This document shows, in pieces, positions 1 to 29,135 of a stretch of 48,306 bases of DNA. Numbering within the stretch: position 1 is the stretch's first letter; every line of letters begins with the position of its first letter. Source of the stretch: Mesotaenium endlicherianum (lineage: Eukaryota); the NCBI GenBank assembly GCA_009602735.1, contig WELA01002297.1, forward strand, positions 842,773-891,078, given 5' to 3'. Position numbers and translations under genes: made by a program. The notes beneath the pieces were generated by a model. That model was not told the origin of the DNA, ran no database searches, and saw only the letters and a program-made list of their open reading frames with translations.

Positions 1-237
1 TCCTTTTGTGTGGTGGGAGCCATACTGAACATGTAACCAGGGCACAAGTTAGTAGGATATCGACCTTTGTCCTAGAAGTTGCAGGAAGGGAGTAAGTTCG
101 TATTAGTATGGTGTATTCGTTCCTGTTTACCTTACAGGGTGATTGCCAGGAGTTGACGTAGTTGCGGTGCGCTAGACATATACGTATGAATGTGTTTTCA
201 GGTGTGTTAAGTGATGTATGGCTGTGCGAGGGCCTTT
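1..237 (-). mobile_element. Fragment D: pol-to-accessory-ORF spacer and first codons (MAPTTQK) of the accessory ORF of the chromovirus family; continues off the left edge
   Basis: Reverse complement aligns with 12,657-12,896 of copy C (cacatcactt..., caccctgtaaggtaaaca, tactaacttgtgccctg, atggctcccacca). ATG is at 23-21. Confidence 0.85.
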
Positions 238-807: not shown

Positions 808-1008
808 TTCTAACCTTGCTTATGTATGAGTTTACTGATTTGCATCATTGATGCTAGTTTACTCGCATTTGACTTACGAGTATTATTCCCTGCTAGTGTA
901 TTGTCCTTTGCCGTTAAAACAGTTAACGGAAATATCATAAAGATTACTTGCTGATATAAAGATCTTTATTAATTGTTAATCGCCTATTTGGTAAGTCGAT
1001 TCATTTCA
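808..1008 (+). repeat. 5' LTR of copy A (3' end only)
   Basis: Matches 10,157-10,357 with about 9 differences in 201 nt, ends ...GATTCATTTCA and is followed by the PBS. Confidence 0.92.
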
Positions 1009-1009
1009 G

Positions 1010-1021
1010 TGGTATCGGAGC
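1010..1021 (+). promoter_or_regulatory. Primer binding site, tRNA-iMet type
   Basis: TGGTATCGGAGC 1 nt after the LTR. The canonical plant iMet PBS is TGGTATCAGAGC. Confidence 0.9.
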
Positions 1022-1042: not shown

Positions 1043-2521
1043 ATGGTAAGGACAAGGTCTCAAACTAGCAACTCCCGAGACATGGAGAACCTGGATAACG
1101 AGAATGTCGAAAACCAGGCGGAAAGCCATGTAGCGGGAAACCGTACCTATTCGGAAGCAGTAGCAGATGTTGCAGCTAGGGAGGCTGCAGAGGAGGCAGC
1201 TGCTATTGCCGCAGTCGCAGCTCAGCAAGCTGAGGAGGAGAGAACCAGGCTAGAAGCTGAACAAGTAGCAAAGGCCGCTGAAGATACAGAAAGGAGGGAA
1301 AGACAGCCAGCTGACGAGCGCACTGTCGAGGAACTCATGGCATCAAGGGCCAATGTTCTGAACCCACCTCCTGCTGTACAACTCAATGTACCCCTAGGTC
1401 AAATACGTGACCGGCTGAATGCGGCAGGAATTGCTGCTGCAGGAGCGAGAGGGATTGTTGAGGACACTACTCAGCGAGTAGATGCCAATGCTGCTGCTGC
1501 ATTTGCTAATCTACCACCCCAAAGTGTAGACTTGGGAGCATTGTTCGTTCAGATGCAGTCGCAAATGGCGACCATGTATCAGTCCCAGCAGGAGGACAAA
1601 AGAATCATAATGTCCCTACTGCGGGACAGAGACCAACTGGGGTCTCACACCACTAGTGGTGGTGGCCGAGGGCCTAGTAAGCCCAAGCCGAAACCTCCCC
1701 AGGACTATGATCCTGAGGGAAACAGAAAATATTACCTGATCAAGTTTCTCGCGGATGTTGAGCAGTGGCTGGAGAACTACCCAGAACTGCAAGATTACGA
1801 GAAGGTCAGGCACACCGGTGCGCTACTGAAAGGCAGTGCCGCAGACTGGTGGCTTTACTGGAAGGAAGAGCGTAAGGCTCGGCAACTCGGTGACCCTACG
1901 TGGGTAGAGTTTGTCGAGAAGTTGCATGAGAAGTTTGATGTCATCAACCAGCAGGAGAAAGCTATCTATGCGATGATCTCCCTGACACTGAAGCAGACCA
2001 CTTCAGTTGCTGAGTTTGCTCAAAAGTTCCAAGAGAACATGATGAAGCAGCCAGATTTGCCAGAACGGTATAGGATAGCATACTTCAGGTATGGCTTGAA
2101 ATCCGAGGTCTCTGGTCATTTTGCTGAGAAAAAGTATGAGAAACTGGCTGACTTGATCCAGGATGCTGACGCCTGGGATCAGCAGCAGTTCAATCACAAG
2201 CGCCAGAGTAACGCTTTGGTGTCTAAGATTGTCAAAAAGCCCCACGGTTCCTACAATGCAGTTGAAGGAGACCAGGCTGAGGATAATCAGGGTGATGAAT
2301 ATGAGTATGAGTACAATGCTATTCAGTCTAGAGGTAGAGGTGGTCCCTCTCGAGGTGGCTATGGAAGGGGTGGTGGTAGGACTAAGCCGAGACCAGCCTC
2401 AGCAAAATCCACTTGCTACCATTGTCAGCAGAAAGGCCACTACAGAGAACAGTGTCCGGTCAAGCACCTTCCGAAAGTTCAGAGAAATGACCAGCCTTTA
2501 AAAGACAGCAACAGTCAGTAA
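1043..2521 (+). CDS. gag: Gag polyprotein of copy A (492 aa)
   Basis: Retrotransposon gag core (LKGSAADWW...TWVEFVEKL...[10 protein letters not shown]), RGG tract and CCHC zinc knuckle [14 protein letters not shown]. Confidence 0.93.
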
Positions 2522-2535
2522 TTCAGTCTGACTGT
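2497..2535 (+). promoter_or_regulatory. Predicted -1 ribosomal frameshift signal (gag-pol) of copy A
   Basis: Slippery T_TTA_AAA (2497-2503) in the gag frame, 7-nt spacer, perfect 8-bp stem ACAGTCAG/CTGACTGT (2511-2535). The pol frame is -1 and opens only after the TGA at 2488. Confidence 0.8.
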
Positions 2536-4350
2536 GAGGATGCTATAGATAGTGAGTCGTCACTAGCTGCCCTCGTAGCAGGTATTATGGGTCCTGCTGA
2601 ACTGGATTCACTATGCATGCCTGACAACCAGATAAAGGAGACCATCAGCAATATGGACGTCCAGAGAGTGCACACTCTGGATGCTCTTGTTCCACCTGAT
2701 GTCCAACATTTCTTTGCTACGTCAGGAGAACAATGCGAAAGTCAGGAAAAGACAGTCCCCCCTATCCTACTGCATTGCATGATTGCAGGTAGGAAGGTGA
2801 GGGCATTTGTTGACGGAGGGGCGTCACATACTTTTATCCACAAGGACTTAGTTAAGCGGCTAAGGCTGCCTACTGTCACCCAAGGGAATAGAAAAATATT
2901 CCTTGGAGATGCCTCAAGTATCCCGGGAGGAGTTATAACCAAGCCTATTGAGGTCCAGTTAGGTTCTGGCATTGCAGTTCTAACTGAAACGCTTACATTT
3001 GAGGTACTCAACACTGGCTTTTATGATCTCGTGCTAGGCAGGTCCTGGCTTAATAGACATCAAGCTGAAGTGTGTTGGAGCAGAGGTACAGTTAAAGTGA
3101 GAGGAGCCAGTGATGGGCAGACTGACTTGGCACCCACCAGTGCTCTTCCTCTTGTCCTGTGTGGATGGCAAATGAAGGAAAAGAAGAGGCTTCCAGAAGG
3201 ATGCAAGTTGCTGAATGCAATGGAGTTCGTCAAAAGCTGGAACCAGAAGGAGGACAGAATGTTCTGTCTGCTGCTAAGAGAGGTACCTCTTCAACCTGAA
3301 GAAGTGGTTGAGAAAAAGGTAAGCCCTCCGAAGCACCCTACTGCTGCAAAACTTGTTGCTCAGTACACTGATATATTTAATATGCCTCCAAGACTACTCC
3401 CTAAGAGGGAAGTAGATCATAGGACTGATTTATTACCTGGGAGTCAACCACCTTGGCAACGCACTTATGGCTTGTCTTATGTGGAGAGCGAGGAGTTGAA
3501 AACACAGATTGCAGAGCTTGAGGAAAATGGTTATATTTCTCCCAGTAAATCACCTTACGGCGCACCCATCCTATTTGTTAAGAAAAAGGATGGCAGTATG
3601 CGGATGTGTGTGGATTACAGAGCCCTGAACAGAATTACAGTAAAGAACAAGTATGCTTTACCCAGGATCAAAGACTTGCTTGATACCCTGTCTGGTGCTA
3701 AGGTGTTCAGTAAGATAGATCTCAAGAGTGGTTATCATCAAATCAGAATTGCTGAGGGGGATGAACACAAGACTGCATTCCGTACACGTTATGGACACTA
3801 TGAGTTCAACGTGAAACCATTTGGACTGACTAATGCTCCTGCGACCTTCATGGGTGCTATGAATGACATTTCCAGACCTTATTTGTATAAGTTTGTGCAG
3901 GTTTTCCTGGATGATATTTTAATTTTCTCTAAAGATGAAGCTCAGCACGCTGAACACTTAAAGACAGTCCTGGACACTCTAAGAACGAATCACTTATATG
4001 CTAAAATGAGCAAGTGTGATTTCTTTAAGGAAAGTATTGAATTCTTAGGCCACGTTGTCAGTAAAGAGGGCATCAGTGTGGATCCTAAGAAAGTCCAGAC
4101 CATAAGGGACTGGCCAGTACCACAGTCTGTCTCTGAAGTTAGATCCTTCCTCGGGTTGGCTAACTACTATAGGAGATTTATTGAGAATTATTCCACAAAG
4201 GCCAGTAAACTGACTGACCTTACTAAGAAAGACATCGGGTGTGTGTGGGGGGAAGAGCAGCAGGCTGCCTTCCAGACCCTTAAGGATGCCCTTTGTTCTG
4301 CCCCAGTGCTAGCCGTGTATGACCCCAGCAAACCGGTGCAGGTGGTTACT

Positions 4351-5610
4351 TGAAATGAATCTTGCTTAATCAATATTAATATATTTCATTTAAATATAAA
4401 AGATCAGAGATAGGTGGAAGCGTGTGAAATCAGGGAGCGATCTTTGCCCTTATAATGAATTCCGTTTACTCATCTATAGTCCTTGACTCACTTATCGTAG
4501 TGTGCCATAGTTGCACACGAATACAAGGCACAAGAAAGAGGCGAGCTTGAGGACTAGAGCTTCTCCTTTAGAAAAACCTGACCTCTTGCCTACCAGGCAT
4601 ACAAGCATGTGTAAGCACATACACAACATCAGGGACTGAATAGCAAAGGCGCTCTCATTCAGATGACCATAAAGTAGCTAAAACACATCCCACTGACTTA
4701 GGTGCAAAAACCATGGAATCTGTCTGCTGTGTGACCCCGAAATGTCAGAGGGCATAACTCTGTCAATACTACTCCAAATTGAGCAAACTCAACGGCAACG
4801 GATGCATCTTGACGAGACCTTTCTGAAATGTTCTAGTTTCCTCCAAATGAAGCGCAAACGAAGCAGCCATGGCAATTTCCGTGAAGGCTGGTCATTAGAA
4901 CAAACCCAAAAAGTGCACACATCACTTGCAAGTAGAAATCCGACTGTAAAGCCTACTGTCCAGAATGAGGGACCACGAGATCCCAGCCTGCTATGAACCT
5001 AGTGACCACCTGGTTGACCACGGCGCAAGGTGCGCCGTTTCGTGGGAAACACGTTAAGTTGGGACCCACGGATCTAGGTCTAACGACCATATTAATTGGT
5101 CGGTTGACTGAAGTCCTAATAGTTCAGTTGACTAACGACGGCTCCGCCTACCCAGGAGTTAACCATACTGGTAGGACATCGGTTTACCGAATCTCAGTCG
5201 ACCTTCCGACTTCCAGTATTCTGCGGTCACATGTGCCAATCTATAATAATAATCTAATTGAACGTATCTATCCTCAGCGTACTGAAGCTAAGTATACTGA
5301 CTAATATCAAGCGAGCTTACTATATGTCAACCTACTGATATTACATCCTATATATAACTGATATATGAATCTCAGCAAACTATACTATGATACAAAAGTC
5401 ATCCTGTTGACCTTCTCAACAAAGTCAGCAAACTACACTGTGATACACAAGTCATCCTGCTGACCTTTTTGACAAAGTAAGTAAACTCGCATTACATTGA
5501 CATACATTCATTTAGATGAACTCGCACATGTGAGCATATTGACATAATACTTATTTAAAATTATATATATGTATGCAATTAATTAAATAATGATGAACTG
5601 ACTCATTACA
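4351..5610 (-). mobile_element. Solo LTR (1260 bp) of a related family, inserted in the RNase H of copy A
   Basis: TG...CA ends (TGAAATGAAT...ACTCATTACA) match the A-family termini in reverse. 5-bp TSD TTACT at 4346-4350 and 5611-5615. Confidence 0.92.
5373..5478. repeat. Two ~53-bp tandem repeats inside the solo LTR
   Basis: cagcaaactaYactRtgatacaMaagtcatcctgYtgacctt...acaaagt occurs twice. Confidence 0.8.
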
Positions 5611-7618
5611 TTACTGATGCCTCTGACTTTGCCATGGGTGCTATTTTGTTGCAGCCTGCTGACAAAACCACGAAGGATGGTAAGGTACGGCAGGAGTGGC
5701 ATCCTGTGCTGTATGAGTCTATGAAATTTAATCCAGCGGAGATTAATTACTCAGTGCATGATAAAGAGCTGCTAGCTATCATTCATGTACTCAAACAGTG
5801 GAGAGCATACTTACATGGTAAAGCTTTTAAGGTGATTACAGATCATCTAGCTCTGACTCACTTTCAGAAGAAGTCCAAGCTGTCGAGGAGGGAGAACCGC
5901 TGGAGCCAGATGCTGGAGCAGTTCCAAGTCCAGATCGACTACAAACCAGGGAAGTTGAACCCTGCTGATGCACTCTCTAGAAGACCTGACTTGCAAGAAA
6001 GGAACTTTAGTCAGCATACTGTAGATAAAGTCCTGTGTGCACTCACTTCACTAAAGGTGAAAAAGTCCTTCCTTGAACAACTTAGGAAAGCCTACCTTTC
6101 TGACCCAACATTTGAGCCCAGCCCCACTACTGGTATGTGTCGTGCTACCGCACTCGGGTATAAGCTCAAGGGAGGGGTCTGGGTGACTGAAACCACTTCA
6201 GGCAGGCTGAAGCTGGTCATTCCTAATAATTTGGAAATAAGGTCTCTCTTACTGAGTCAAGCTCATGACAGTCTCCTGGGTGGACATTTGGGGCAGGCCA
6301 AAACTGTTGGCAAACTGGCAAAACATTATCATTGGGAGGGGTTACCCCGGGAGGTCTTGAAATATGTCAAGTCCTGTGACCAGTGTCAGAGAAATAAGTC
6401 TCGGCACACACCACCCGGAGGTCTCTTGCAACCGCTACCCATCCCAGCGGGACGCTGGGAAACTATATCCATGGACTGGGTGGTCTCACTACCAAGAACT
6501 GCCAACGGGCATGATTCAATACTGGTAGTCGTGGATAAACTGACAAAAATGGTCATTTTTATCCCCACAACTGTCAAAGTGACTGCACTCGAAACAGCGA
6601 GACAGTTTTACAACCATGTAGTATGCCAACATGGGCTCCCTTCTAATATCATCTCAGACAGAGACTCAAAATTCACCTCTAAGTTCTGGAGAGCTTTAAT
6701 GGGGTTAATGGGAGTCAAACAGCTGCTCAGCACAGCAAACCACCCTCAGACTGATGGGCAGACTGAAAGAACTAACCGAGTTCTGCAGGAGGTGCTGAGA
6801 GCATATATTAACCAAAAACAAGATAATTGGGATGACCTGTTGCCTCAAATTCAGTTTGCGGTCAACAGTGCGGTGCACGCGTCAACGGGCAAAACTCCTT
6901 TTGAACTCAGCCTGGGTAGAGTCCCTAAGTCTCCTCTAGATGTGCTAGGGGAATCTTTAACTCACCCTGAAGGGATTGACAACCCGGTCTCCCTCCAGTT
7001 AACTCAGGAGTTTGCTGACACCCTGTCAGAAGTCCAACGAAACTTGCACACGGCCCAAGAAAACCAACAAAAATACGCTAATCAACACCGTCGGGAACTG
7101 ACATTTTCCAAGGGGGATTTAGTCAAACTGCATTCTCAGCACCTGTACCTCCCTGGTGTGGCCAAGAAAAAGCTTGGCCCTGTCTGGGTCGGTCCATATT
7201 CGGTGGTCCGACGTGTCGGTCAGAATGCTTACAAACTGAATATGTCCGCTGACTACAAGGGTCACCCGGTCTTTAATGTCTCCTTCCTGGAACCATACAT
7301 CAAAGGTGATACACTGTTCACAGGTCGGTTACCGGTCCAACCGGGACCGGTCCCCGCTGTCCGGGACGACGACACTAAGGAATATGAGGTCGATGAGATT
7401 TTAGACGCTCGCTCGGTCCGTCGATCGTCTAAATATGTCATGAAGTACCTCATCCGATGGAAGGGTTACGATGCCTCTGGGGACACTTGGGAATTTAAAG
7501 ATCAGCTGACCCATGCCAAAGGGGCGTTGAAACGGTTCCACCTTCGGGCGGCTGGGGCACCTCCCTAACAGTCATTTCAGTTGACACGGGAAGGTGACAG
7601 GAGGTCCTGTCTCCATAT

Positions 7619-7690
7619 AAGTTGGAGGGAGATGTGACAGTTAGTGACAGTAGTGACAAGCAGCCCACCTTTAAATTTAAGTTGGAGGGA
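7619..7690 (+). other. Two internal PPT-like copies just downstream of the pol stop
   Basis: AAGTTGGAGGGA at 7619-7630 (followed by GA-TGT) and at 7679-7690, identical to the true PPT at 9594. Confidence 0.75.
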
Positions 7691-7892
7691 GTGGTAGTCT
7701 CTGATCACCATATTACCCACTCAACCTGCGCTCACACTCAATTGCTCTCCAACTCAAATTTTCCTTATATTCGCTCACACCAGGTATTCCACTCTAGGAA
7801 CTCTCCCGATCGCGTCCCTCTTCATCAAGGGCACTCAGTAGCGGCAAAATAGCATGACTTCACTAGCTGCATAGTGTTTTTGATTGAGCAGG

Positions 7893-9490
7893 ATGACTCA
7901 AAAGTCGGAACTCAAGAGGAAGCGAAGGGCGGAAGAGGCACATGCAGAATACTTGCAGTTCCGTGGAGACATCGAATCATCTTCCATCTCCGCTCGGGAA
8001 TCACAACGACTCCAACAACAGCGGGAGGCACAGAAGAAGAAGGAGGAGGAGGAACAGGCCAGACTGAGGCAGGAAGAACTGGACAGAAAAGCTGCAGAGG
8101 AGGCTAAGAAAGCAGAGGAGGAGAGGCAAGCTGAGGAGAAGCGGAAGCAGCAGGCTGAAGAAGAAGAACAGAGGAGAATCAGCAGCTACCGCTACACGGT
8201 GCTGGGCAAGGGCTTTGATCTAATGGAGGAGGCCTTCAAGTATGCTCAGAGAAGTCGCAGTGAGTCGCAGAAGAAAATCCTCCAGTAAGAAGGGGAGACA
8301 TCCGAAAACTTCGACAAGTATATAGAGGTCGGCACAGGGCTCCTCCTCTACCACGATTACGCCAGGATGGTAGGATATACCATCGGAGAGGCCAAGGCAA
8401 TGGCCCAGGTGAACGAAGCAGGAGCTGTCTCGATTCCTGGTATCTGGGGGGCAGATAGGGTCATCAGGATGATCCCCATGGACGCGGACAGCTTCAAGGA
8501 CTCAACACCCCACAACAGGTTCAAGGCCATGTACAATGAGGTGGAGAGGAGGAGCTGGGAATTCTTGGCCAGAGAAACCAGTCAGCTGGACTTTGCAGGG
8601 CACTGGTACCCTTGTACTCTCAGAAAGACAGACGCTGCCTTCTTCCAAAAGCCCACTGATTGGCGGTGGATGACCATCAACATGAGGGACCAGCAGAATG
8701 ACAGGGCGACGGATGAGGATTTCCTGACAGACCTAAACGGGAACATAGTATTGCCCCCTCACATTGCGGCTTGGGATCCAAGATTGGATGGAGTCAGAGA
8801 CTGCATGAGCCAAGAGATGCAGGGGGACAGAAGCAGGGCCCGAGAGTCATTCTCCAAAGGGAAGCACGCTTATGCCAAATGGGCAAGTAAGCAGGGGGAA
8901 AAGGACCTCTATGCGGTCCGGACTCAGCAGCCCCCACCAGCACCCAAAAGGGGAAGGTCAGTAGGATATTCTTTTTCTCGGGAGGAGCTGGAGCAGCGGA
9001 CAGAGGAGACCCCAGAAGTCTCAGAGGAACCCGGGGACGGCGAGGAGGCGGAGTCGGAGGAAGACGAGGAGGAAGGCGAGGAGGAGGACACTAGCCCCGC
9101 CGTGATCCTGACACCTGCCACATCCCCTGTAAGGGAGAAGACGGGGTGGGCCCCGCCGCAACTCGCTCAAGAGGAGGATATCACTTGGCTGGGGACTGCC
9201 AGCGGACAGAGCCCATCTCCAGGCAAGGAGACCCAGTCGGACAGGGCAGACAGGAGGGCTGCTCGGGAGATAGCCAGAGGTCTGCCAGCATCTCCCTCGC
9301 AGAGAGGGCATGTACCCTTGGCTCATGTCATGCAACATCCTTCCGCGAGAAGGCTGCCTCCCTTCAGTTTCAGACTGTGCAGGAGGAAACAGCCCAGTTA
9401 CTGCGTTCTCCGCCGGGTCCTTACACGGAACCCCCTTCTCTAACAGGCTTCAAAAGACACCAAGACAGGAGGAGGTCTGGCTCCCCCTGA
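7893..9490 (+). pseudogene. Accessory third ORF of copy A (unknown nuclear-type protein, ~530 aa; one in-frame stop at 8286 and a frameshift near 9350)
   Basis: ORFs 7884-8288 and 8367-9443 share one frame (ILQ*EG vs LLQKEG in C). Colinear protein homology with the ORF of copy C. Confidence 0.8.
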
Positions 9491-9593
9491 GCATAGGGCC
9501 TCAGGGACATCTCCCTCCTAAGGGCAGCAGGCTGGGGATAAGAGGGACAGCACGCTGTTATTAGTAAGAGTGTTGTTGAGACGACAACATGAT

Positions 9594-9606
9594 AAGTTGG
9601 AGGGAT
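9594..9606 (+). other. Polypurine tract of copy A
   Basis: AAGTTGGAGGGAT immediately precedes the TGTAATGAATC LTR start. Confidence 0.88.
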
Positions 9607-10357
9607 TGTAATGAATCAGTATACTGGTCGATATAATATTCATTTAAATAATATAGTTAAATAAGTTCAGCCTGCTGAACTCTAGTTAACAATCAGTCTG
9701 CTGGACTTTATACTTAACATCAGTTTAATGACTTGGCCGGAAGTAGCAGGCTGAGGTCACCTTAAGTCAGCTTGCTGACACATTCTTTGACAGCCAGCTG
9801 ACTTCCGTACTCGGTAGCAGCGAACTGCCTCGATATGCATCTAAGTGTGGTATGCTAGATGAATGGCCAGATGACATCCCTATGATGGATGGCGATTCGG
9901 GATGATGGGAGATGGCGGTGGATTTGGTTAACCGAGGTCCTACCAACGTGGTTAACTCCCGGGTAGGCGGTGCCATCGCACTGACCGTTGAACAGTAAAC
10001 TCATTCCATGTACATATGCTAGGCATTGCTCTCGAGTTCGGCATTCGNCGCTAGACATTGCTCTCGAGTTCGGATTCGGAAATGAGGCCAACTCTCTTGG
10101 ACAGCTTGCTGAGAGAGATCTGAATCCAAGGCAAGAAGCCATTGATACGCACTGTCTTCTAACCTTGCTTATGTATGAGTTTACTGATTTGCATTATTGA
10201 TGCTAGCTTACTCTCATTTGACTGACGAGTATTATTCACTGCTAGTGTATTGTCCTTTGCCGTTAAAACAGTTAACGAAAATATCATAAAGATTACTTGC
10301 TGATTTGAAGATCTTTATTAATTGTTAATCGCCTATTTGGTAAGTCGATTCATATCA
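9607..10357 (+). repeat. 3' LTR of copy A (possibly a chimeric join at n10,048)
   Basis: TGTAATGAATC...GATTCATATCA with terminal inverted repeats; matches the other family LTRs. Confidence 0.88.
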
Positions 10358-11622
10358 CATACTCACATCCATCACCCTGATCATCCTCAGCCTGGTCTCC
10401 TTCAATAGCATTGTAGGAAGCGTGGGGCTTTTTGACAATCTTAGACAACAAAGCATTACTTTGGCGCTTGTGATTGAACTGCTGCTGATCCCAGGCATCA
10501 GCATACTGGATCAAGTCAGCCAGTTTCTCATACTTCTTTTCAGCAAAATGACCAGACTTCGGATTTCAAGCCATACCTGAAGTATGCTATCCTATACCTT
10601 TCTGGCAAGTCTAGCTGTTTCATCATATTCTCCTGGAACTTTTGAGCAAACTCAGCAACTGAAGTGGTCTACTACAGTGTCAACGAGATCATTGCATAGA
10701 TAGTTTTCTCCTGCTGGTTGATGACATCAAACTTCTCATGCAACTTCTCGACAAACTCTACCCACGTAGGGTCACCGAGTTGCTGAGCCTTACGCTCTCC
10801 TTTCCAGTAAAGCCACCAGTCTGCGGCAATGCCTTTCAGTAGCGCACGGGTGTGCCTGACCTTCTCGTAATCTTGCAGTTCTGGATAGTTCTCCAGCCAC
10901 TGCTCAACATCCGCAAGAAACTTGATCAGGTAATATTTTCAGTTTCCCTCAGGATCATAATCCTGGGGAGGTTTCGGCTTGGGCTTACTAGGCCCTCAAC
11001 CACCACCACTAGTGGTTTGAGACCCCAGTTGGTCTCTGTCCCGCAGTAGAGACATTATGATTCTTTTGTCCTCCTGTTGGGACTGATACATGGTCGCCAT
11101 TTGCGACTGCATTTGAACGAACAATGCTCCCAAGTCTACACTCTGGGGTGGTAGTCTAGCAAATGCAGCAGCAGCATTGGCATCTACTCGCTGAGTAGTG
11201 TCCTCAACAGTCCCTCTCGCTCCTGCAGCAACAATTCCTGCCGCATTCAGCCGGTCACGTATTTGACCTAGGGGTACATTGAGTTGTACAGCAGGAGGTG
11301 GGTTCGGATAACTGGCCCTAGATGCCATAAATTCTTCAACCGTGCGCTCGTCAGCGGGCTGTCCTTCCCTCCTTTCTGTATCTTCAGCATCTTTTGCTAA
11401 TTGTTCAGCTTCTAATCTGGCTCTCTCCTCCTCAGCTTGCTGTGCTGCGACTGCGGCCATAGCAGCTTGTTCATCTGCAGCCTCTCTAGCTGCAGTATCT
11501 ACCACTGCTTCAGAATAGGTACGGGTTCCCGCTACATGGCTTTCCGCCTGGTTTTCGACGATCTCGTTATCCTGGTTCTCCATGTCTCGGGAGTTGCTAG
11601 TTTGAGACCTTGTGCTTACCAT
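10358..11622 (-). pseudogene. gag: Truncated gag of copy B
   Basis: [16 protein letters not shown]... matches A gag. It has a CGA>TGA stop at 10,996, small deletions, and ends at the LTR junction. Confidence 0.9.
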
Positions 11623-12376
11623 ACAAAGAAGACTGTGATAACAGCTCCGATACCACTGAAATGAATCAACTTACCAAATAGGCAATTACCAATTAATAAA
11701 GATCTTTATATCAGCAAGTAATCTTTATGGTATTTTTCGTCAACTGGTTAAGCGGCAAAGGACAACACACGAGCAGGGAACAATACTCGTAAGTCAAATG
11801 CGAGTAAACGAGCATCAATGATGCAATCAGTAAACTTATACATAAGCAAGGTTAGAAGACAGTGCGTATCAATGGCTTCTCGCCTTGGATTCAGATCTCT
11901 CTCAGTAAGTCGTACAAGAGAGTTGGCCTCGTTTCCGAATGCCGAACTCGAGAGCAATGCCTAGCATATGTACATGGAATGAGTTTACTGGTTAACGGTC
12001 AGTGCGATGGCATCGCCTACCCGGGAGTTAACCACGTTGGTAGGACCTCGGTTAACCAAATCCACCGCCATCTCCCATCATCCCGAATCGTCATCCATCA
12101 TAGGGATGTCATCTGGCCATTCATCTAGCATACCACACTTAGATGCATATCGAGGCAGTTCGCTGCTACCAAGTACGGAAGTCAGCTGGCTGTCAAAGAA
12201 TGTGTCAGCAAGCTGACTTAAGTGGACTTCAGCCTGCTGCTTCCTGCTGAGTCATTAAACTGATATTGAATGCAAAGTCCAGCAGATTGATTATCAACTA
12301 GAGTTTAGTAGGCTGAACTTAATTAACTATTATATTTAAATGAATATTATATCTACTAATATACTGATTCATCACA
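10358..12376 (-). mobile_element. Copy B: 5' LTR (11,657-12,376), PBS (11,644-11,655) and gag, cut by the copy A LTR
   Basis: Reverse-complement LTR TGTGATGAATC...TTCATTTCA, PBS TGGTATCGGAGC, and gag highly similar to that of A. Confidence 0.92.
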
Positions 12377-15300
12377 CGATGCCTCTGGGAACACTTGGGA
12401 ATTTAAAGACCAGCTGATCAATGCCAAAGGGGCGTTGAAACGATTCCACCTTCGGGCGGCTAGGGCACCTCCCTAACTGTCATTTCAGTTGACATGGAAA
12501 AGTGACAGAAGGTCCTGTCTCCATTTAAGTTGGAGGGGAAATGTGCCAGTGTATGGCAATTAGTTTGCGAGAATAGGACAGTTATTGACAGTAAAAGGTC
12601 AGTATAGAGACAAATATAACAACCAGACCCACATGAAGCAAAGATGGCGGAATGAAAAAGGGACTCGCACATCAACACATCACTTACCTCACCCTGCACA
12701 CACATTCATCCGTTTGGTTTTCAGCGCATTACAGCTCCGTTAACTCCTAGTAACCACCCTGTAAGGTAAACAAGAGCAAACCTACCATAATAATACAAGC
12801 TTAATTCTCTGTCTGCAACTCCTTTGATAAAGATCGAGATTTTACTAACTTGTGCCCTGCTTACATGTGCAAGATGGCTCCCACCATACAAAAGGAAGAC
12901 AGAAAGCGCAAGGCAAAAGAAGCCAGGAGGACAATGGAGCAATACCAGAAAGAGTTGGCGGCAACGTTCCTCACCAGGAGAGAACAAGAAAGGGTCCGCA
13001 GACAACAAGAGGCGGCGGAGGAAGCACAGAGGAAGAAGGAGCAGGAGGCGGAAAACCTCACGAAAGCGGAAGAGGAGAGATAGAAGAAATAACAAGAAGA
13101 AGAGGCGCCAGCAGAGGAGGAGAGAAGCAAGAAGGCTGAAGCTAAGAAGCAGAAGAGCTTGGCCACTTACAGATATACTGTGGTGGGTGGCCAAACCTTT
13201 GATAACCTGAAGGAAGCAGTACTGGCAGCCCAGGAGATCAACAAGTTGGAACAGACAACACTTCTACAGAAAGAAGGAGCTGAAGCACTGGATAGGTACA
13301 TCGAGACACACACTGGTGTGGTCCTCTGCGAAGGTTAAGCCAAGATGGTGAGCTATACAGCAGAGCAAGCTCGGTACCTTGCAGCTGATTCGGAGAACAA
13401 GCCAGTTCCAGTTTTTGGAATAGTGGGAGATTAAAGACTCATCAGAATGGTGAGCATGCAGCCCGATAGCTTTAAGAATACGCTATTTTACCTGACACTG
13501 CTGCCAGCTTACAATGAGGTTGGGCGAAGGAGTTGGGAGTACCTGGCTAGGGAAACAGGGCAACAGATGTTCTCTCCCCACTGGTTTCCTTATAAGCTGA
13601 AAAAGGCTAAGCATGGGCCACAGTACTACCAGCAGCCTACAGACGGGAGGTGGATGACCGTCACTAACAAGAAGCAGGAGTGTGACTGGGCCCAACCAAA
13701 TGACGTCCACTATGGGCTAAACGGCAACCTCATGCAACCACCTCACATTGCCCCTTGGGACCCCACACTGAATGGATGCTTGAGTAATATATATGTGGAG
13801 ACCAGAGAGCACAGGAGGAGGGGGAGAGACTATTTCTCTAAAGGGAAGCATGCCTTTGTCAAATGGGCGAAAAATGCAGGCCGGATAGATATCAGCAGGC
13901 TGAAGGCCAAGCAACCCCCAGCCCGTCTTAAGAAAGTGCGATCAGTAGATTTTTCCATGTCTACCAAGGAGCAGGATGACTTAGTGGACGAGACCCCAAC
14001 CCTCTCAAAGGAGGAAGATGAGGAGGATGAGAAAGAAGAAAAAGGCAGATGAGAAGCATCAGGAGTTGGTACTCAAGAGACCCAGGGGCAGGCAAAAGGA
14101 GGGACTCCAAGGGCGCAAAGATCACGTGTATGAAATGTGATCCCCGTCATGGAGGCAACATGGCCCCACACTCGTTCTCCCAGCCCACCTGCCCAAGCAG
14201 GGGACGAAGCTGATCTGACTGTTCTGGGCAGCAGAGAAAGGCAGAAATCCCCAGAGGACAGGGGTACCAAAAGAACAACACGCGGAGTAGCCAGTGGTAT
14301 GCTGGCCACCCCCTTCAATCAGGGACATGTGCCTCTTGCCAATGTATTTCAGCATCCTACCAAAATGCCTGTTCATGTGGGTATCAACATCCAGGTGGTT
14401 GAAGAGCAGGCTACAATCCTTCGTTCACCTCGGAGCTCAACTTTAGAGCAAACCGGGTTCTTTAGAAGGCCAGCTGACAGACCTAGAGGGCTGTCGAGAT
14501 CTAGGTCCAAATGTCAATTCCCTAATCCTGAAGCCCCAGGAACAACCCCTTAAACATCAAGACCATCCTCCAGTCAAGCCTTGCTGGAGGTCTCTCTGTT
14601 TGCATCCCACAACGGAAGTGGATTGAGGGTGGAGGTGATAGTTCACAGTCACGAGTGATCCCCACAGCTAGGCAACAGTGTTGAAGCAAAAGGCAGGCTT
14701 TGAAGGGGGTAATTTTATTAGTTCCCTGATTAAGTATTTCTATAGTTTAATTTTGTCGAAGCGACAACAATCTAAGTTGGAGGGATTGTAATGAATCGCT
14801 ATATTGGTAGATATAATATTTCAAATACAGTAGTGAATTAAGTTCAACCTGCTGAAATTTAGTCAACATTCAATCTGCTAGACTCTATATAATTATCAGT
14901 TTAATGACTCAGCCGAGAGCAGCAGATTACAGTTAACTTAAGTCAGCTTGCTGACACATTCTTTGACAGCCAGCTGACTTCCTTACTCAGTAGCAGCGAA
15001 CTGCCTAGACATGCATCTAAGTGTGATATGTTAGATGAATGGCCAGATGACATTCTTATGATGGATGACAATTCGGGATGATGGGAGATGGTGGTGGATT
15101 TGGTTAACCGTGGTCCTGCCAATTCCCGGGTAGGCGGTGCCATCGCACTTGCCATTGAACAGTAAACTCATTCCATGTACATATGCTAGGTATTGCTCTC
15201 AAGGTCGGCATTTGGAAACGAGGCCAACTCTTTTGTACAGCTTACTAAAAGACATCTGAATCCAAGGCGAGAAGCCATTGATATGCACTGTCTTCTAGCC

Positions 15301-15492
15301 TTGCTTATGTATGAGTTTACTGATTGCATTATTGATGCTAGTTTTTTTGCATTTGAGTTGCGAGTATTGTCCACTACTAGTCTATTGTCTTCTGCTGTTT
15401 AATCAATTAACAGAAAATACCAAGAAGATTACTGCTGATATGAAGATCTTCATTAATTGTTAATAGCCTATTTGGTAAGTCGATTCATTTCA
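12377..15492 (+). mobile_element. Copy C, 3' part: end of chromodomain, internal PPT, degenerate accessory ORF, PPT (14,774-14,786) and 3' LTR (14,787-15,492)
   Basis: 12,377-12,537 matches 7470-7630 of A. LTR TGTAATGAATC...GATTCATTTCA. Confidence 0.9.
12874..14553 (+). pseudogene. Accessory third ORF of copy C (several stops and frameshifts)
   Basis: MAPTIQKEDRKRKAK coiled-coil, then YRYTV, YNEVGRRSWEYLARET, PTDGRWMT, LNGN..PPHIAPWDP, FSKGKHA and GHVPLANVFQHP, all shared with A. Confidence 0.8.
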
Positions 15493-20816: not shown

Positions 20817-23800
20817 ATGGCCCCCATGAGATATGAACCCTCTCGCGGGGCAATAGTCTTCATGAATGCTGAGGGCACAGCATACCAGGGACATGATCAC
20901 AAGCATGGTCCTCTTGGCCTCCAGCTTGAACCGACTCCCTTAGTGTTGGAAAACTTCAAAGAGCTAGCTACATCTGGCCCGATCTGGGTAAGTGCTTCAA
21001 TAAGCTCTGATTTCCTTCTCCTTCTTCTTGTGCCAGCTGTGTAGTGATTTGAGTTATTATATATTAGTTCGCATATATTTTAATGTTTTCAAATATATTT
21101 GGAGTAGTATTGTGTGGAGTCAAGTGTGAATAGGTACTCTAGTAACTTGGTTCATGTCCTTTGAACCTTCCAAGGCATTTTCGAAGTTAGAGGAAAGACC
21201 TAGAAGAACTCCATGTGGCAAAAGTCAGATGTGCCATTTTTAGGTCAAAAGGACATGTGTACATTATTCTAGAAAGAGGTGGCAAGTTTTGGGATGTGTT
21301 GGGTGCCAACACATCAACATACACCTTCCTAGAAATTACTTATGTAGCAAGTATATAAACAAGAGCTAGAACATAGAAAGACATTCCAGAATCACTCTTG
21401 TACTTGCCAAAATCCAGAAATATATTAACTTTCAAGAAGCCATCTCTCTTTCAAGAAGCTACCACTTGTGTTCAAAGATCCTTGTCTTGAATAGATAAAG
21501 TATTCTGTTTTACTAAGTACTTTATCTATCTGTTTCACTACAGTGGTATCGGAGCTAGGCACTTTGGTAGCACAAGAAGATGGCCGATCCTCAAGACCAA
21601 CAGCAAGCTTTCGAAGGAAGCCCTTCCTCTCCAAGACACCCTCCTCCAGCGCCGATGGGAGAGCCCACTCAAGAAAATCTGCAACAACAAGAAGCACCAC
21701 AAGGAGGAGCACACCCTCCTCCAGCGTCGATGGGAGAGCCTACTCAAGGAAATCTGCAACAACAAGAAGCACCACAAGGAGGAGCACCGTCAAATCCCGT
21801 GGCAGCCGCTATAGCAAAGTTGACCCCACCACAAGGAGTTCCCGCAAATGAGTGGGCAGCCTTCCTAATGACCGTCCACAACCAAGTGGGCTTGGCCACC
21901 TATGAAGCAACCGTGCAAGCGTCAAGAGAAGCTATGGCTGCCATGGTTGCCCCTATTGCGAGCAATGCTCAAAATCCAGCCCCGGCTCAAGCGCCTCCAC
22001 AAGAGCCAACGAGAGCAAGGAAACTCATCAAGCCCGGCAAACCCGACACTTTCAACCCCGGGAAAGGTGCCAACCTGAATTTATGGCTCTACCAAGTGGA
22101 GACGTACCTCGCGTTCCTTGAAGTACCCGAGGAGGACTACGTTCCCTTTGCCGTTACCTTACTTAGAGGAGCAGCAACATCATGGTGGCGTAACTATCAA
22201 GCGGCTATATATCAAGCTATGGCGCACCCCATGCTCGGCCAAGAGCCCCCACCATCATATGCAAGATGGGCAGATTTTCGTGAGGCCCTCAAGAAGCAAT
22301 TCATGCCCATCAATGCGGAGAAGATTGCCCGAGGAAAGCTCCACCATCTCAAGCAAACGACGTCCGTTCAAGAGTATACATCCAGATTTCACGCCCTCAC
22401 TCTTGAGATCCCCAACATGTCTCTCGAGGAGAAGATTGACCGTTACATCTTTGGCCTCAAACCCAAGGTGGCAAAGGAAGTGGAGTTACGCGACTTGACG
22501 GACTTCTCAAAGATCATTGAAGTGGCCCAAAAGGTGGATACCTTGGATTTCAAGCACTCCGTGCCTTCATCTTCACGGGTACCGACGACGCGGGTGTACG
22601 CAGCCCCTTCCACATCCGAATCTGGACCCACACCCATGGAAATCGGAGTTATTAAAAGGGACCCCGCGGCTGCCCGGAAGAGTGGAAGACCCTCCAATGA
22701 CACTTATGATGCAAGAAACCAGCAAGGAGTGAAAGCAAGACTCTCCCCGGCTGAAAAAGAAGCTCTCATGACGGCTGGACTATGCTTCTATTGCAAGGAA
22801 AAGGGCCATCGTGCACTTTCATGCCCCAAAAAGTTGTCAAAAAACGGACAGCGCCGGTAGGCCAGGAGCCTACCACCCCAAGACCCACTTCACGAGAAGG
22901 CAACACGCCAAGTGAGGTGGAGACCCCCGTTGAAGACGACGTTCCAGCCCCAATGAGTTTGAGAGGTTACCTTGGAGGAGAGAAGGTCCACATCTTGGTG
23001 GATAGCGGAGCTCAAGGCAACTTCATTGCTGCAGATTTTGCCACCAAGCACGGTATTACTATGCGAACTCTTGACCACGACGAGGAGATTATGATGCCCG
23101 ATGGATTCTCCTATACTACCCCTTCCAAGAAGACGTACCCCTTGGCACTCTCTATCAAGTCCTTCAAGGATAGAGTAGTGTTCTCCCCCATGCAATTGGG
23201 CAAGTACGACGTCATCCTAGGGACGCCTTGGTTGACCAAGCACAACCCCCAAGTTGATTGGAGGACCGGTACTATCAAGATCAAGAATGACATCACTTCA
23301 AGAATCTGTATTTTGCGCGCAATCCAGAATATCCAGACCCAAGACATCCAGAAGCCGGCACACGAGATACTATTGTCCGCCCTCCAACTCAAGAGACTTG
23401 TGAGGAAGGGACACGAGCTTCTTTTGGCCTTGATCACGCCAAAAGACATCAAGAAAGACATCGAGAGTCAAGAAGGCAGCCCCGTTCCCAAGGAGATACA
23501 AGAAGTCTTTGAGGACTACAAAGAAGTGTTCTCCCCGGAATTGCCCAAGGGCCTACCCCCCAAAAGATTCGTAGACCACAAGATAGAGTTGGAGCCCGGA
23601 AGCAAGCCCATCTCTCGGCCTACGTTCAAAATGTCATACACGGAGCTAGACGAAGTCAAGAAGCAAATCAAGGAGCTACTGGAGCATGGCTTCATTCGAC
23701 CTAGCAAGTCGCCATTTGGAGCCCCGGTGCTATTTGTCAAGAAGAAAGATGGTACCTTGAGGATGTGTGTGGACTATCGCGCCCTCAACAAGATCACCAT

Positions 23801-26800
23801 CAAGAATCGATACCCGCTGCCGCGCATGGATGAGCTCATGGACCGGCTGGTTGGAGCCAAGTACTTCACGAAGATTGACTTACGGAGCGGCTACCACCAG
23901 ATTCGCATCGCAGAACCGGACATAGAGAAGACGGCATTCAGGACAAGATATGGACATTTTGAGTTCATGGTCCTGCCATTTGGACTCACCAACGCGCCAG
24001 CAACTTTCATGACTATGATGAACACCATATTTCAGCCCATGTTGGACAGATTTGTGGTGGTATTCATCGATGACATCCTTATCTACAGCAAGACCCTTGA
24101 AGAGCATGCGAGACACTTGAAAGAAGTCCTTGAAGTATTGAAGCAAAACAAGCTGTTTGCGAAGGAGTCAAAATGCGAGTTTGCCAAACAAGAAGTGGAG
24201 TTCCTAGGTCTCCACGTGACTGCTGATGGCATCAAGATAGACCCCAAGAAGACCACGGTGGTGGAGGAATGGCCAACCCCCACGACCAAGAAAGAACTCC
24301 AGTCATTCTTGGGATTTGCCAATTGGTACAGAAAATTCATCCAAGGCTTCTCGCACATAGCAGCCCCCCTGACAGATCTACTCAAGAAGGACAGGCTATA
24401 TACATGGACCGAGAAAGAGGAAGAGGCATTTCAAGAGTTAAAGCGAAGATTGACCACATCCCCGGTGCTCACACTCCCAAGTCCAAACCCAGATTGGCCC
24501 TTCCACGTCATCACCGATGCATCTTCCTATGCAATAGGAGCAATCCTGCTTCAAGACCAAGGCAAGGGACTGCAGCCCATCGCCTACGAGTCAAGGAAGC
24601 TAAATCCAGCCGAGCAAAATTATACAACCACGGAGCGAGAGGCATTGGCGATTGTACATGCCTTGAAGGTTTGGCGCTGCTACGTTGAAGGACGCAAAGT
24701 ACTGGTCACCACGGACCACGAGGCGTTAAAGCACCTCCAGACGCAGCCGTATCTCTCAAGGAGACAAGCAAGATGGAGCGGATACTTGCAACAATACAAC
24801 ATCACGATTCAGTACCAGCCCGGCAAGACAAACCCGGCTGACCCCCTCTCAAGACTGCAATTAAATGCAGTGATGGTATCCCTGAAGACAGATCTGGAAG
24901 CTCGATTTTCAGCCGCCTATGAAAGAGACCCTTACTACAAGAACGGAGAAGCAGCCTTGGACCCATGCAAGAAGCAAGAAGGCAATTATTGGGTGAGGCA
25001 AGATACGGGCCAGAGATGTGTTCCTAATGACTTAGACCTCCGGCTCTTGCTTCTACGAGAAGCACACGACAACCCTCTTGGAGGACACTTTGGAATCCTA
25101 AGGACCACGGGCGTTCTAGCTAGGACTTATTGTTGGCCAGGCATGTCTAAGCAAGTCAAGGAGTACTGCAGGAGCTGTGACACATGCCAAAGAATCAAGC
25201 CATCATCGCAAAAGGCGGGAGGACTCCTCCAACCACTACCAATCCCCGAAAGACAATGGACGGACATCTCAATGGACCTTATCGTGGACTTGCCCGTGAC
25301 ACCTCGAGGCCATAATGCAATACTCACGGTGGTGGACAGACTTACCAAGATGGCTCATTTTATTCCCACGACGACTAAGGCTACAGCACCACAACTTGCA
25401 AGACTCATCTTTGACAACATCTTCCGACTCCATGGACTACCATCAAGAATTGTGTCAGATAGAGATCCAAGATTCACAAGCCATTTCTGGAAAAATCTCT
25501 TCAAGAACTTGGGTACATCGCTGGATATGTCTACTGCCTACCACCCACAATCAGATGGGCAAACCGAGCGTATGAATCGTACCCTAAAGACCTCTCTAAA
25601 GGCCTACGTGTCTACCCTCGAGCAAGACTGGGACATGTACTTGACCCCCCTCGAGTTTGCCTACAACAACACTACGCAGGCCTCTACCCAAGAGTCCCCA
25701 TTCTTCCTCAACTATGGCTTCCATCCGACCACGCCACTGAGCTTCACGGCTGGCCATGATGAAGTACCTGCAGCCACAGATTTTATGGAGACATTAGAAG
25801 CAGCCCTTACAGCAGCGAAGAAAGCTCTACAACACGCGCAAGATGCTCAAGCAAGAGTGGCGAACAGATCCAGAAGAGAAATTACGTACAGAGTGGGTGA
25901 CAACGTGTTACTATCATCCAAGAACATTTCCCTGAACAACAGGCCTGCCGGCAGCAAGTTCTCTCCCAAGTATTTGGGACCCTTCAAGATTATCCAGCAA
26001 GTCAACCCCGTTGCTTTCAAGCTAGAACTTCCCCAGACTATGCACATCGACCCCGTATTCCACGCTTCCCTCTTCAAGCCATATGTGCAACCCGACAACA
26101 AGTTCCCAGGACGTGTGACAACCCCACCAGCCCCAACAATAGTGGATGATCATTTGGAGTACGAAGTGGAAGACATAGTGGCTATGAGAAATTTCAGGAG
26201 ACAGCAGCAATACTTGATCAAGTGGAAAGGATATCCAGATTCGGAGAATAGTTGGGTGGCGGCGCACTACCTTGACAAAGTTCAGAGAAAGTTGAAGCGC
26301 TTCCATGCCGCCAACCCCCATCTTGGACCAGCCCCAAGTCTCTCTACTAGAAGCCCGAAGACTTCAGGGAGGCAGCCTGCCACCATCAAGAAGCAGCAGA
26401 AGACCCCTTGGAGGCAGCCTGCAAGAACAAGAAAGAGGAAAAATTGACATTAGACACTCTTCTCTTCTCGCAGTTTCTGGACAGAAAACTAAAACTGCTA
26501 CTGGTAATAGGTCTCTGCATAATAAATTCTGAAAATTTACCTGGCTGTAGTCCATGAGTAGCCGGTCATTTAGAGTCCAAGTTTGCTCAATTTGGAGCAC
26601 TGGTGAGAGAGATATGATGCTCTAAGTAGAAGGGGGTCAGGCTGCTGGCATTGTTAGGACAGAATATGCCTTCTGACATTGTGCCTTCCCCTGAACTTGG
26701 AATGCTCTGAAACTCAAGACTCTGGTAGAACATCTTACAGCGCCCAGTTTGAGACTTAGTTTGCAGAATTTGGAGAAGTATAGAAGGACTTATGATTTTC

Positions 26801-29135
26801 AGAAGTTTCTGCACAGATTTGGAGGAGTGCCTACTCTCTCAGCTCTCAACGACACTCCAGAAATGAGAATGCTCTCAAATTTGGTGACCCGGTAGAGTTC
26901 TCCGACGCGGTCCGTCTGGCACTCGAATTTTCAGATTTGGAGCAGTTCTGTGGCCGCTATGAATTTTTGAGTTCGTGGCAGATTCTGGGCCAACTTGTAC
27001 AATTTTCTTTATCATTAAGGAGTAGGCTAGCCAATAAGGTCACACCACCTACGACCTTGCCTAGTCTACCTTACATGTGTAGCACCTGACTTGGCGCCTT
27101 TGACTAGTCCTCTTCACATGTGTGGCATCTGACTTGAAACTGTTGACTAGTTTGCTCCACATGTGTAAGACCTGACTTGACGCGCCGAGACGTCGCTTTT
27201 TCTATCGGGGGGGTGATGTAGTGATTTGAGTTATTATATATTAGTTTGCATATATTTTAATGTTTTCAAATATATTTGGAGTAGTATTGTGTGGAGTCAA
27301 GTGTGAATAGGTACTCTAGTAACTTGGTTCATGTCCTTTGAACCTTCCAAGGCATTTTCGAAGTTAGAGGAAAGACCTAGAAGAACTCCATGTGGCAAAA
27401 GTCAGATGTGCCATTTTTAGGTCAAAAGGACATGTGTACATTATTCTAGAAAGAGGTGGCAAGTTTTGGGATGTGTTGGGTGCCAACACATCAACATACA
27501 CCTTCCTAGAAATTACTTATGTAGCAAGTATATAAACAAGAGCTAGAACATAGAAAGACATGGGAGAATCACTCTTGTACTTGCCAAAATCCAGAAATAT
27601 ATTAACTTTCAAGAAGCCATCTCTCTTTCAAGAAGCTACCACTTGTGTTCAAAGATCCTTGTCTTGAATAGATAAACTATTCTGTTTTACTAAATACTTT
27701 ATCTATCTGTTTCACTACAAGCTGTGTAGGTTGCTTTTGGCTATCAAAATTGAGAAATCCAGCGACTGCAATGAGGCTACATTGGCACTGTAGTTTCCCT
27801 CTGGCAACTGGCAGCTGCACATCACGTATCTGGCTACCTCAAAAGCCTGCCCTCTCATTGCTCCCGTGTTGCTCAGAAGCCTGTCCCATCCCCTTCCCTC
27901 TGCTTTGGAGGTTTTTGTGTGTATGTTCTATTTGTTGTGAAGCTTGACAACTGGCTCGTTCCGTTTGCAATGTCTTTGCTCCCTGTTTGTGGCACGTTGT
28001 TGCTGGAAGAGACAAATTTGAGCCTGGGTGGGATATTTCTTTCAATGCTGAAGTCTTGAGCACTTTCTTTCGTAACAAGTTCTGCTTCTTTTATAACACA
28101 AGCAAACCCACAGTGACATCTTGCAGAACTCTGGAGAGCTCCTGCGCGTCCCTTATCTTTGGGACATCGATAGTTGTCCTTTAAGCCGATTTTGTCGTTG
28201 GAGCCTTGCCCCATGCATGTGATGCAGCAGCAGTGGCCGAGTGCTACGTGGGGGAGCTTGGTGACGGGCCTGGCCAGCCGGAGCGTGCAGGCCGCGCCAG
28301 CCAAAATTCAAGGTGAGCTCGTGCAAAGATCACTCATTTCTCTTGCAATATGCATGTTCAAAATGCAAGCATGACATCTGCGAGGGCGCATGTGCAGGAG
28401 CGCATTTGTGAGTGTGCGCGTGCGCGCATGTACATATGGGCGCGAGGGTGTTGTTTCCGAGGTTCTGCTGTACTCTCGAGTCTCAACATCAGTGACATCA
28501 TGACATTGCTTGACATTGTGACATGTGTGGGGTCAAATGTTCTGACTGCAAGGTGGAATCAAGAGCAAGAGACGCTGTTCATAAGTCACATGCTTGCTTA
28601 CCTGCTGTATGTGTATCTTGATTGTGTGCATGCGCGCTCGGCAGGTGTCAACGCCGTGAGCTCAAGCAGCGAGGGCAACGTGGCGGCGGCCGTGCACCCT
28701 CTGCCGGCATCGATCCAGCCTACAAGGCGCAGGGGCTGGCCCAAGAAGGGCTCTGCTGCAGCAGCGCCAGGTGGCAGCAGCATGGCCGTCCTGGACAAGG
28801 ATGTCTCCAAGGGGCCGACGAAGAGGGCCGCTGCTACTCTACTGCCACGTCCTGCCAGAAGACCCCGATATAACGGGTGTAGTGCGGCCCAAGCGCGCCT
28901 TGTCATGCATGAGAAGGATGGGGAAACTCGGCACGCGGCGCTTGCAAAGGAGACGGCGGCCGCCGACGTGCAACGGGCGCGAAAGAAAGCAGACGAGGCG
29001 GCAGCCCTGACGGCCGCTATTGCAGCTTCCCTGGCCATGGCCAAGGCTGTGGGGGGGCTGCGGAGCGTTGCTGAGAGCGCTTGGGCCCGGGTTAGGGTAA
29101 ACGGGGCCGGCACGCTGCTAGTGAGCACCTTCTAG
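20817..29135 (+). CDS. Derived tandem paralog of the PH-like gene lacking the PH-like core; predicted exons 20,817-20,987, 28,228-28,312 and 28,645-29,135 (248 aa); may be a pseudogene
   Basis: Conserved start context, HGPLGLQL ~ HPPLGLTL, homologous intron sequence, [12 protein letters not shown] exon and last-exon homology. GT/AG sites and phases are compatible. The reading frame continues past TAG 29,133 to 29,567. Confidence 0.6.
21580..22860 (+). CDS. gag: Gag of element F (426 aa)
   Basis: [27 protein letters not shown] and zinc knuckle [14 protein letters not shown]. Confidence 0.95.
21637..21786 (+). repeat. 75-bp in-frame tandem duplication in F gag
   Basis: HPPPA[P/S]MGEPTQ[E/G][12 protein letters not shown] occurs twice. 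Confidence 0.9.
22782..26447 (+). CDS. pol: Pol of element F (PR-RT-RH-IN-chromodomain), uninterrupted
   Basis: [53 protein letters not shown] and [15 protein letters not shown], followed by a basic tail. Confidence 0.96.
22839..22874 (+). promoter_or_regulatory. Predicted -1 frameshift signal of F
   Basis: A_AAA_AAC in the gag frame at 22,839-22,845 and stem GGTAGGC/GCCTACC at 22,856-22,874. pol is in the -1 frame. Confidence 0.8.
27073..27185 (+). repeat. ~43-bp tandem repeats (2.5 copies) upstream of the F PPT
   Basis: acatgtgt....ctgacttg....tgactagt is repeated. Confidence 0.75.

Follow-up and report, generated by a model that had tools for sequence, protein, structure and literature searches.

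How does an LTR retrotransposon come to carry, and to keep, a short intron immediately upstream of an accessory gene? An element whose copies are made through RNA is expected to shed introns that are short and efficiently spliced. The window analyzed here is a 48,306-nt stretch of Mesotaenium endlicherianum DNA, and its first 15.5 kb form a nest of one Ty3/gypsy family in which an extra sense open reading frame (ORF) follows pol. We conclude that the intron before this ORF is in all probability real. Copies outside the window were compared in sequencing runs X1, X5, X7, X12, X23 and X24, six of the 24 runs listed, of which X23 and X24 are recorded as poly(A) RNA. X5 looks like DNA because its depth is even along gag-pol and it is unspliced across the acceptor.

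The host element and its extra ORF

The host element is a Ty3/gypsy chromovirus, a plant-type LTR retrotransposon. [quoted passage not shown] The gag frame overlaps the pol frame, and the PBS is putatively of the tRNA-Met type. The chromodomain has cage-type aromatic residues, as judged by eye, and the best named matches of the integrase region are algal (Closterium and Haematococcus proteins, ~37-49% identical). Together with the PBS, these traits point to a non-seed green plant or an alga as the likely host. A 324-nt spacer separates the pol stop (7568) from the extra ORF. Two further members of the family are represented by copy C (12377-15492), the 3' end of another element, and by copy D (minus strand, 237-1), a fragment of a third.

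Table 1 Coordinates of the family features in the window
Feature	Position	Strand	Evidence or remarks
Element A 5' LTR, 3' end only	808..1008	+	96% match to 10157-10357; upstream is the N gap 698-807
Element A primer-binding site, TGGTATCGGAGC	1010..1021	+	sequence
Element A gag (Ty3 capsid, CCHC knuckle)	1082..2521	+	Pfam PF19259, PF03732, PF00098; ORF list
Element A pol (PR-RT-RH-INT-SH3-chromodomain), interrupted by insertion ~4351-5610	2491..7568	+	Pfam; joint 4345>5611 in X1, X5
Element A internal PPT copy, just past pol stop	7619..7629	+	sequence; second copy 7679-7689
Motif common to A and C	A 7704..7740, C 12671-12708	+	28/38 identical, p=0.002 vs shuffles
A-type intron	7784..7891	+	donor CAG/GTA; branch motif 7863-7867; acceptor CAG 7889-7891
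Extra sense ORF of A, 516 codons, one stop at codon 132	7893..9443	+	ORF list, translation
Element A PPT before 3' LTR	9594..9606	+	sequence
Element A 3' LTR	9607..10357	+	repeat match
Copy C internal PPT copy, equivalent of A 7619-7629	12527-12537	+	sequence
Copy C intron	12766..12872	+	donor AAG/GTAAAC; TACTAAC 12843-12849; acceptor position 12870-12872 broken (CAA)
Extra ORF of copy C, six internal stops	12874..14553	+	39% identical to A ORF
Copy C 3' LTR	14787..15492	+	PPT at 14774 precedes
Copy D intron, C/D subfamily	25..130	-	donor 130; TACTAAC 54-48; acceptor CAG 27-25; ATG 23-21

Several other insertions were recorded in the window. The pol of A is interrupted by a 1260-nt minus-strand insertion (4351-5610) whose ends resemble the LTR ends of A's family and which has a 5-bp target duplication; it probably represents a solo LTR from a related family, and its empty site is present in X1 and X5. 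Between A and C, on the minus strand, positions 10358-12376 hold the 5' half of another family member (LTR, PBS and a broken gag), which is 93% identical to A. An N at 10048, accompanied by a local duplication in the 3' LTR of A, is likely an assembly join and, given this N and the gap at 698-807, the nesting order of A, 10358-12376 and C may contain assembly joins. A second chromovirus at 21040-27719 is apparently intact, with LTRs differing at 6 of 503 bases, a 5-bp target duplication, open gag and pol with a chromodomain, and a 770-nt 3' region in which no ORF of at least 100 codons was found. Long open frames at 28317-29135, 37140-38258 and 43883-45124 (272, 372 and 413 codons) have no Pfam match.

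The product of the A ORF has a basic N-terminus, an E/K/R-rich helical stretch, a conserved core of ~270 aa and an acidic low-complexity tail. Over 263 codons of the core, A and C differ by a pS of 0.74, at which silent sites are saturated, and by a pN of 0.35. The extra ORF is under purifying selection inside the element. With silent sites saturated and replacement sites not, it follows that the position, length and signals of the intron have outlasted neutral similarity.

No transmembrane helix was found in either product (maximum 19-residue Kyte-Doolittle mean 0.88 in A and 0.99 in C), and an env-like role is ruled out for a product that has none. Searches for relatives gave no homologues among 665 and 2880 candidates and 0 matches to PDB sequences. 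A HMMER scan of 1.84 billion proteins returned 2 matches, both to repeat proteins with scores summed from short weak matches, and these were rejected. Pfam gave no Athila ORF-1, Transposase_28, plant mobile domain or DUF390 at E<=0.01 (E<=1 for the core); its matches to CCSAP (E=0.0065, on the E/K-rich part) and DUF6462 (E=0.043) were both rejected. In the ESM Atlas the A core had no usable match and the best score of the C core, 0.83, was at chance level, while AlphaFold2 run on a two-row alignment gave a pLDDT of 35.5, which is unusable. From the basic KRKRR/RKRK N-terminus and the lack of a membrane helix, our guess is that the product is likely a soluble nuclear accessory factor, and most plausibly it would aid the element's expression or counter silencing.

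Intron signals in two lineages

The first-pass annotation had described an intron of conserved size before the ATG in three copies. The letters that it quoted stand where it placed them in A (GT at 7784 to AG at 7891, 108 nt) and in D (minus strand, GT at 130 to AG at 25, 106 nt). For copy C its donor at 12766 holds. The acceptor that it read there, AAG/ATG at 12873 with a length of 108 nt, does not hold, the family acceptor being the CAG position at 12870-12872, which gives 107 nt. When the copies are aligned from the ATG backwards, A reads CAG-G-ATG, D reads CAG-T-ATG and C reads CAA-G-ATG. The true acceptor is CAG, one base upstream of the ATG, and the loss of this acceptor in C explains why the AG chosen earlier sits one base downstream. 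Intron lengths are 108, 107 and 106 nt in A, C and D, respectively.

The three copies had been treated as independent. In fact, the C and D introns are identical at 82 of 107 columns (z=13), so that these two copies make up one subfamily and the comparison is between two lineages (A; C/D) and not three. The description of A and C as otherwise unalignable is correct for the intron body (global p=0.29) and incorrect for the upstream motif, the branch motif and the ORFs (39% protein identity). Likewise, intron position has been held as claimed, whereas length ranges over ~103-108 nt and is not fixed, since indels in one X7 contig bring the net intron length to ~103 nt. TACTAAC does occur in the C and D introns, and these are its only 2 occurrences in 96.6 kb (both strands). 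The motif that A and C share upstream of the donor, from 7704 in A, may be a promoter or start region.

Each of the three donors (CAG/GTA in A, AAG/GTA in C and D) agrees with 6 of 9 letters of the donor consensus, and the branch motif lies 26, 25 and 25 nt from the intron 3' end in A, C and D. Judged against a U2-type arrangement, with a branch 18-40 nt before YAG and no AG between the two, D agrees fully; the window copies of A (at 7866 and 7873) and C (at 12872) deviate, and other copies in X1, X5 and X7 agree. The introns are not U-rich (26-30% U).

Copies outside the window retain these signals. Among the 40 of 827 A-type differences listed, position 7866 is A in all of the X1 depth (37702/37702, 20 contigs), in the X5 contig and in 5 of 6 RNA reads, so that the branch motif of these copies reads CTAAC. 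Position 7873 is T in all of the X1 depth (33 contigs), in the X5 contig and in 6 of 6 RNA reads, which leaves no AG between branch and acceptor. For the C/D type, position 12872 is G in both X7 contigs that cross the acceptor (151.1/151.1 depth), and among the 40 of 105 X7 differences listed none falls in the donor or in TACTAAC and many fall between the two. The splice signals, whose conservation across copies the first-pass annotation had proposed to check, are kept in both lineages.

Every DNA copy examined has the intron: the three window copies (A, C and D), an X5 contig that spans the A acceptor (7817-8330), and two contigs of X7. Its retention in these copies implies that the templates of reverse transcription must for the most part be unspliced. 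One X7 contig also has gaps of 2 bases (12901) and 1 base (13039) that net one codon, and the joined X12 contig described below shares the first of these; the gaps either reflect the way in which A/G-rich sequence aligns or mark a frame change that was compensated within a sub-lineage.

The joined form and expression of the ORF

One of the seven X12 records (record 2; 168 nt, depth 6.6) aligns to 12873-13008 from its letter 35. Of the 34 letters in its loose 5' end, 30 are displayed, and by eye these match D 160-131 at 27/30 and C 12736-12765 at 24/30. The loose end stops exactly at the donor, its last eight letters being those of window positions 12758-12765. Read by eye in this one contig, from a run whose type is not on record, the join is an exact removal of GT..CAG from C/D-type sequence, and it uses the local donor and not a distant one. 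The program listed no joint for this record, and the junction was taken from the loose end. X12 has zero depth over 12765-12852, a span over which X7 has a depth of 70-151. The join also bears on the acceptor of copy C, because use of AAG would extend the alignment over 12871-12873 and leave a loose end 3 letters shorter. The AAG/ATG acceptor is ruled out by this join at 12873, by the G at 12872 in X7 and by the ATG-anchored alignment. The 2-base gap at 12901 means that the joined contig need not encode the whole protein.

Direct RNA evidence is sparse. The poly(A) runs X23 and X24 have 1 and 0 reads on the C stretch, and no 7783>7892 joint is present among the 15 of 372 joints listed for them, with depth just past the A acceptor reaching only 1.05 or less on either strand. 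Poly(A) reads over 6352-7891 in both runs are mostly first-mate-plus, which in a usual stranded library would be antisense to the element. On the A-type ORF, X24 shows a minor cluster of reads at 8200-8507 that are likely sense (depth 5.3; 5 molecules end at 8213) and may be copies of one fragment.

Chance motifs combined with an artefact could imitate this picture, with the joined contig being a chimera or a microhomology deletion between the AG at the exon end and the AG at the intron end, which the two ends do have in common. The join is seen in one contig at low depth (6.6), and the composite pattern MAG/GTA, 100-110 nt, YAG-N-ATG, which matches A and D only, was devised after the data were seen. 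However, the join takes out exactly the predicted GT..AG and settles the one-base ambiguity as CAG-G-ATG, a form found independently in X7, A and D, and other A-type copies have a better branch motif and a better AG-free zone than the window copy does. We regard an artefact as very improbable. The claim that the intron is both spliced and retained by the element is supported by the X12 contig, by signals across two saturated lineages and by all DNA copies examined.

We favor, with moderate confidence, a model in which the GT-AG intron lies in the leader of the ORF, the ORF is expressed on its own short-leader mRNA from an internal promoter, and the full-length RNA that is copied stays unspliced. 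Transcription would start in the spacer past the internal PPT copy and give a first exon of at least 34 nt. In the short mRNA the intron would lie near the cap and be spliced efficiently, which would place the ATG one base past the junction and would also remove an ATG inside the intron. In full-length LTR-driven RNA, the donor would be ~6-7 kb from the cap and would mostly be skipped; reverse transcription of this unspliced RNA would pass the intron on to new insertions, and copies losing it would be selected against. An mRNA of the ORF's own, made from the predicted internal promoter, is plausible. The A leader has no ATG from 7633 to the donor, whereas the D type has one ~50 nt upstream of the donor, so that only a short leader would serve for D. 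Upstream of the ORF, neither a start site nor a convincing TATA box was found; contigs cannot reveal transcript starts, and RNA reads are sparse here. Internal promoters ahead of a 3' ORF are described, in the passages compared, for Tor3b/4b env (PMC4402516) and for Grande gene23 (PMC7264820).

The main rival to an internal promoter is a retrovirus-like subgenomic mRNA that starts in the 5' LTR, in which gag-pol is first spliced out as far as a spacer acceptor and the short intron is then removed in a further splice that follows a small internal exon. Precedents are available in the parts of the literature compared, where the Athila env-like RNA (PMC7197481) and that of Bagy2 (PMC7264820) are spliced from full-length RNA and the Tor3a env is spliced from the 5' LTR (PMC4402516). 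The joined X12 contig reaches only 34 nt upstream of the donor, and what lies farther upstream in that molecule is unseen. Against this, the junction uses a local donor, where the precedents have one long intron; no strong donor-like site is present from 808 to gag (the window lacks most of the 5' LTR), the three strong ones that were found, at 2797, 3319 and 6057, all being in pol; and no such long joint is among the 15 of 372 joints listed. We consider this two-splice route unlikely.

Next in order is splicing from ordinary full-length RNA, with the ORF translated by reinitiation or internal entry and with intron-less copies rare or selected against. X12 is possibly a DNA run; the joined contig would then be an intron-less genomic copy, and spliced RNA would sometimes be reverse-transcribed. 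A low-depth X12 contig (12545-12743, depth 2.4) covers the upstream spacer, and in passages of its description the internal intron of Ogre is spliced from part of the transcripts only (PMC6317226). On the other side, the intron is kept in all the DNA copies examined, and a full-length RNA would contain many ATGs upstream of the ORF. Plant mRNAs are normally scanned from the cap. The X12 depth of 13-33 over most of exon 2, compared with that in the spacer, also points away from this route, although the contrast is weak because contigs do not measure level. Splicing of this kind is, in our view, improbable as the source of the ORF's expression, and we return to the short-leader mRNA from an internal promoter as the preferred reading.

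A possibly exchangeable cassette and comparison with known elements

The alignment of A with C ends just past the internal PPT copy and resumes just before the true PPT, with flanks that are 82-93% identical. The cassette between these points spans 7619-9604 in A and 12527-14784 in C, and its silent sites are saturated between the two. In X1 and X5 the A-type cassette has about 1/4 to 1/3 of the depth of pol, and an X5 contig departs at 7629 into a different spacer. These patterns suggest that several old cassette types may have been exchanged on one young backbone. Exact 11-letter PPT copies stand just past the pol stop at 7619, 7679 and 12527, and those at 7619 and 12527 have a TGT within a few bases, resembling a PPT-LTR junction. 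These internal copies may serve as second primers for the plus strand or as points of swapping, or they may be what is left of an older LTR start.

A broader and tentative reading is that the PPT copies bound an exchangeable gene cassette of host style, comprising its own promoter, a short first exon, the leader intron and an orphan nuclear protein. Several deeply diverged versions of it would reside on nearly identical gag-pol-LTR backbones, and the intron would survive reverse transcription by being spliced only near the cap. The same divergence pattern could also mark a relic, in which a captured piece of a host gene brought its leader intron along and splicing is incidental to the element. 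Divergence between the A and C cassettes is indeed far above that of the flanks (93% identity in the pol tail and spacer, 377/458 in the LTR part), as if the cassette had been imported as a block. However, purifying selection acts on the ORF, whose depth in X1 and X5 is high, and the searches turned up no homologue from the host, whose own proteins may nevertheless be missing from the libraries searched. Capture through RNA would, moreover, drop an intron. We give the relic very little credence.

The separate traits of this element have counterparts elsewhere, here drawn from passages of the cited papers. Bagy2 of barley and Athila of Arabidopsis resemble it in placing an extra sense ORF after pol and ahead of the 3' LTR, in having an acceptor immediately before that ORF and in copying unspliced RNA; they differ in a long intron removed from LTR-driven RNA and in proteins that are often env-like with membrane helices (PMC7264820, PMC7197481). 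The present element, in contrast, has its donor only ~105 nt upstream, is a chromovirus and encodes a protein without a membrane helix. Grande gene23 of maize and Tor3b/4b env of Oikopleura have a 3' ORF expressed separately from gag-pol, as is predicted here (PMC7264820, PMC4402516), and the Grande protein is nuclear (PMC7264820), a location that is only predicted for our ORF. The Grande ORF is antisense and no splicing was seen in the Tor3b/4b env RNAs (PMC7264820, PMC4402516), whereas here a sense ORF is combined with a leader intron and a putative promoter. Ogre keeps a short intron in the DNA of an LTR element and splices it from some transcripts only (PMC6317226), as we propose here; that intron regulates the polyprotein, whereas the present one lies downstream of pol in the leader of a separate gene.

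Among chromoviruses, the closest parallels in the passages compared are Tekay and Bongo3. Tekay has a tRNA-Met-type PBS and an extra ORF, as here, with eORF-3'F in 18% of elements (PMC6317226), and sunflower Tekay has aORFs (PMC11728184). The survey table gives extra ORFs for Tekay only among chromoviruses; in the same source, Tekay is reported from seed plants only and the chromodomain aromatic cage from non-seed plants only (PMC6317226). Our element differs from Tekay in its cage-type aromatic residues (by eye), its overlapping gag and pol frames and the algal best named matches of its integrase region, and an intron is unmentioned in the Tekay passages compared (PMC6317226, PMC11728184). 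The beet chromovirus Bongo3 has a second PPT right past the chromodomain, at the pol stop, as here; an additional ORF was not found in the part of its text compared (PMC3605345), whereas here the PPT copy is the left edge of a divergent gene cassette. The literature searched, which was largely without subscription papers, gave no plant LTR element described as having a short intron in the leader of a sense 3' ORF. As far as the passages compared extend, long-spliced sense 3' ORFs (Bagy2, Athila), accessory ORFs with their own promoter (Grande, Tor3b/4b) and a retained short intron (Ogre) are each known singly, and the combination seen here was not found.

The accessory gene of this retrotransposon very likely has a conserved, spliced leader intron. 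The persistence of a ~105-nt intron until silent sites saturate makes it a small, testable case of intron keeping in an LTR element, for example by position-dependent splicing. An orphan-family protein, together with apparent cassette swapping between backbones, is what one would expect of a gene engaged in conflict with host silencing. To the two routes by which plant LTR elements express accessory genes, long LTR-driven splicing and internal promoters without an intron, the arrangement suggests a third.
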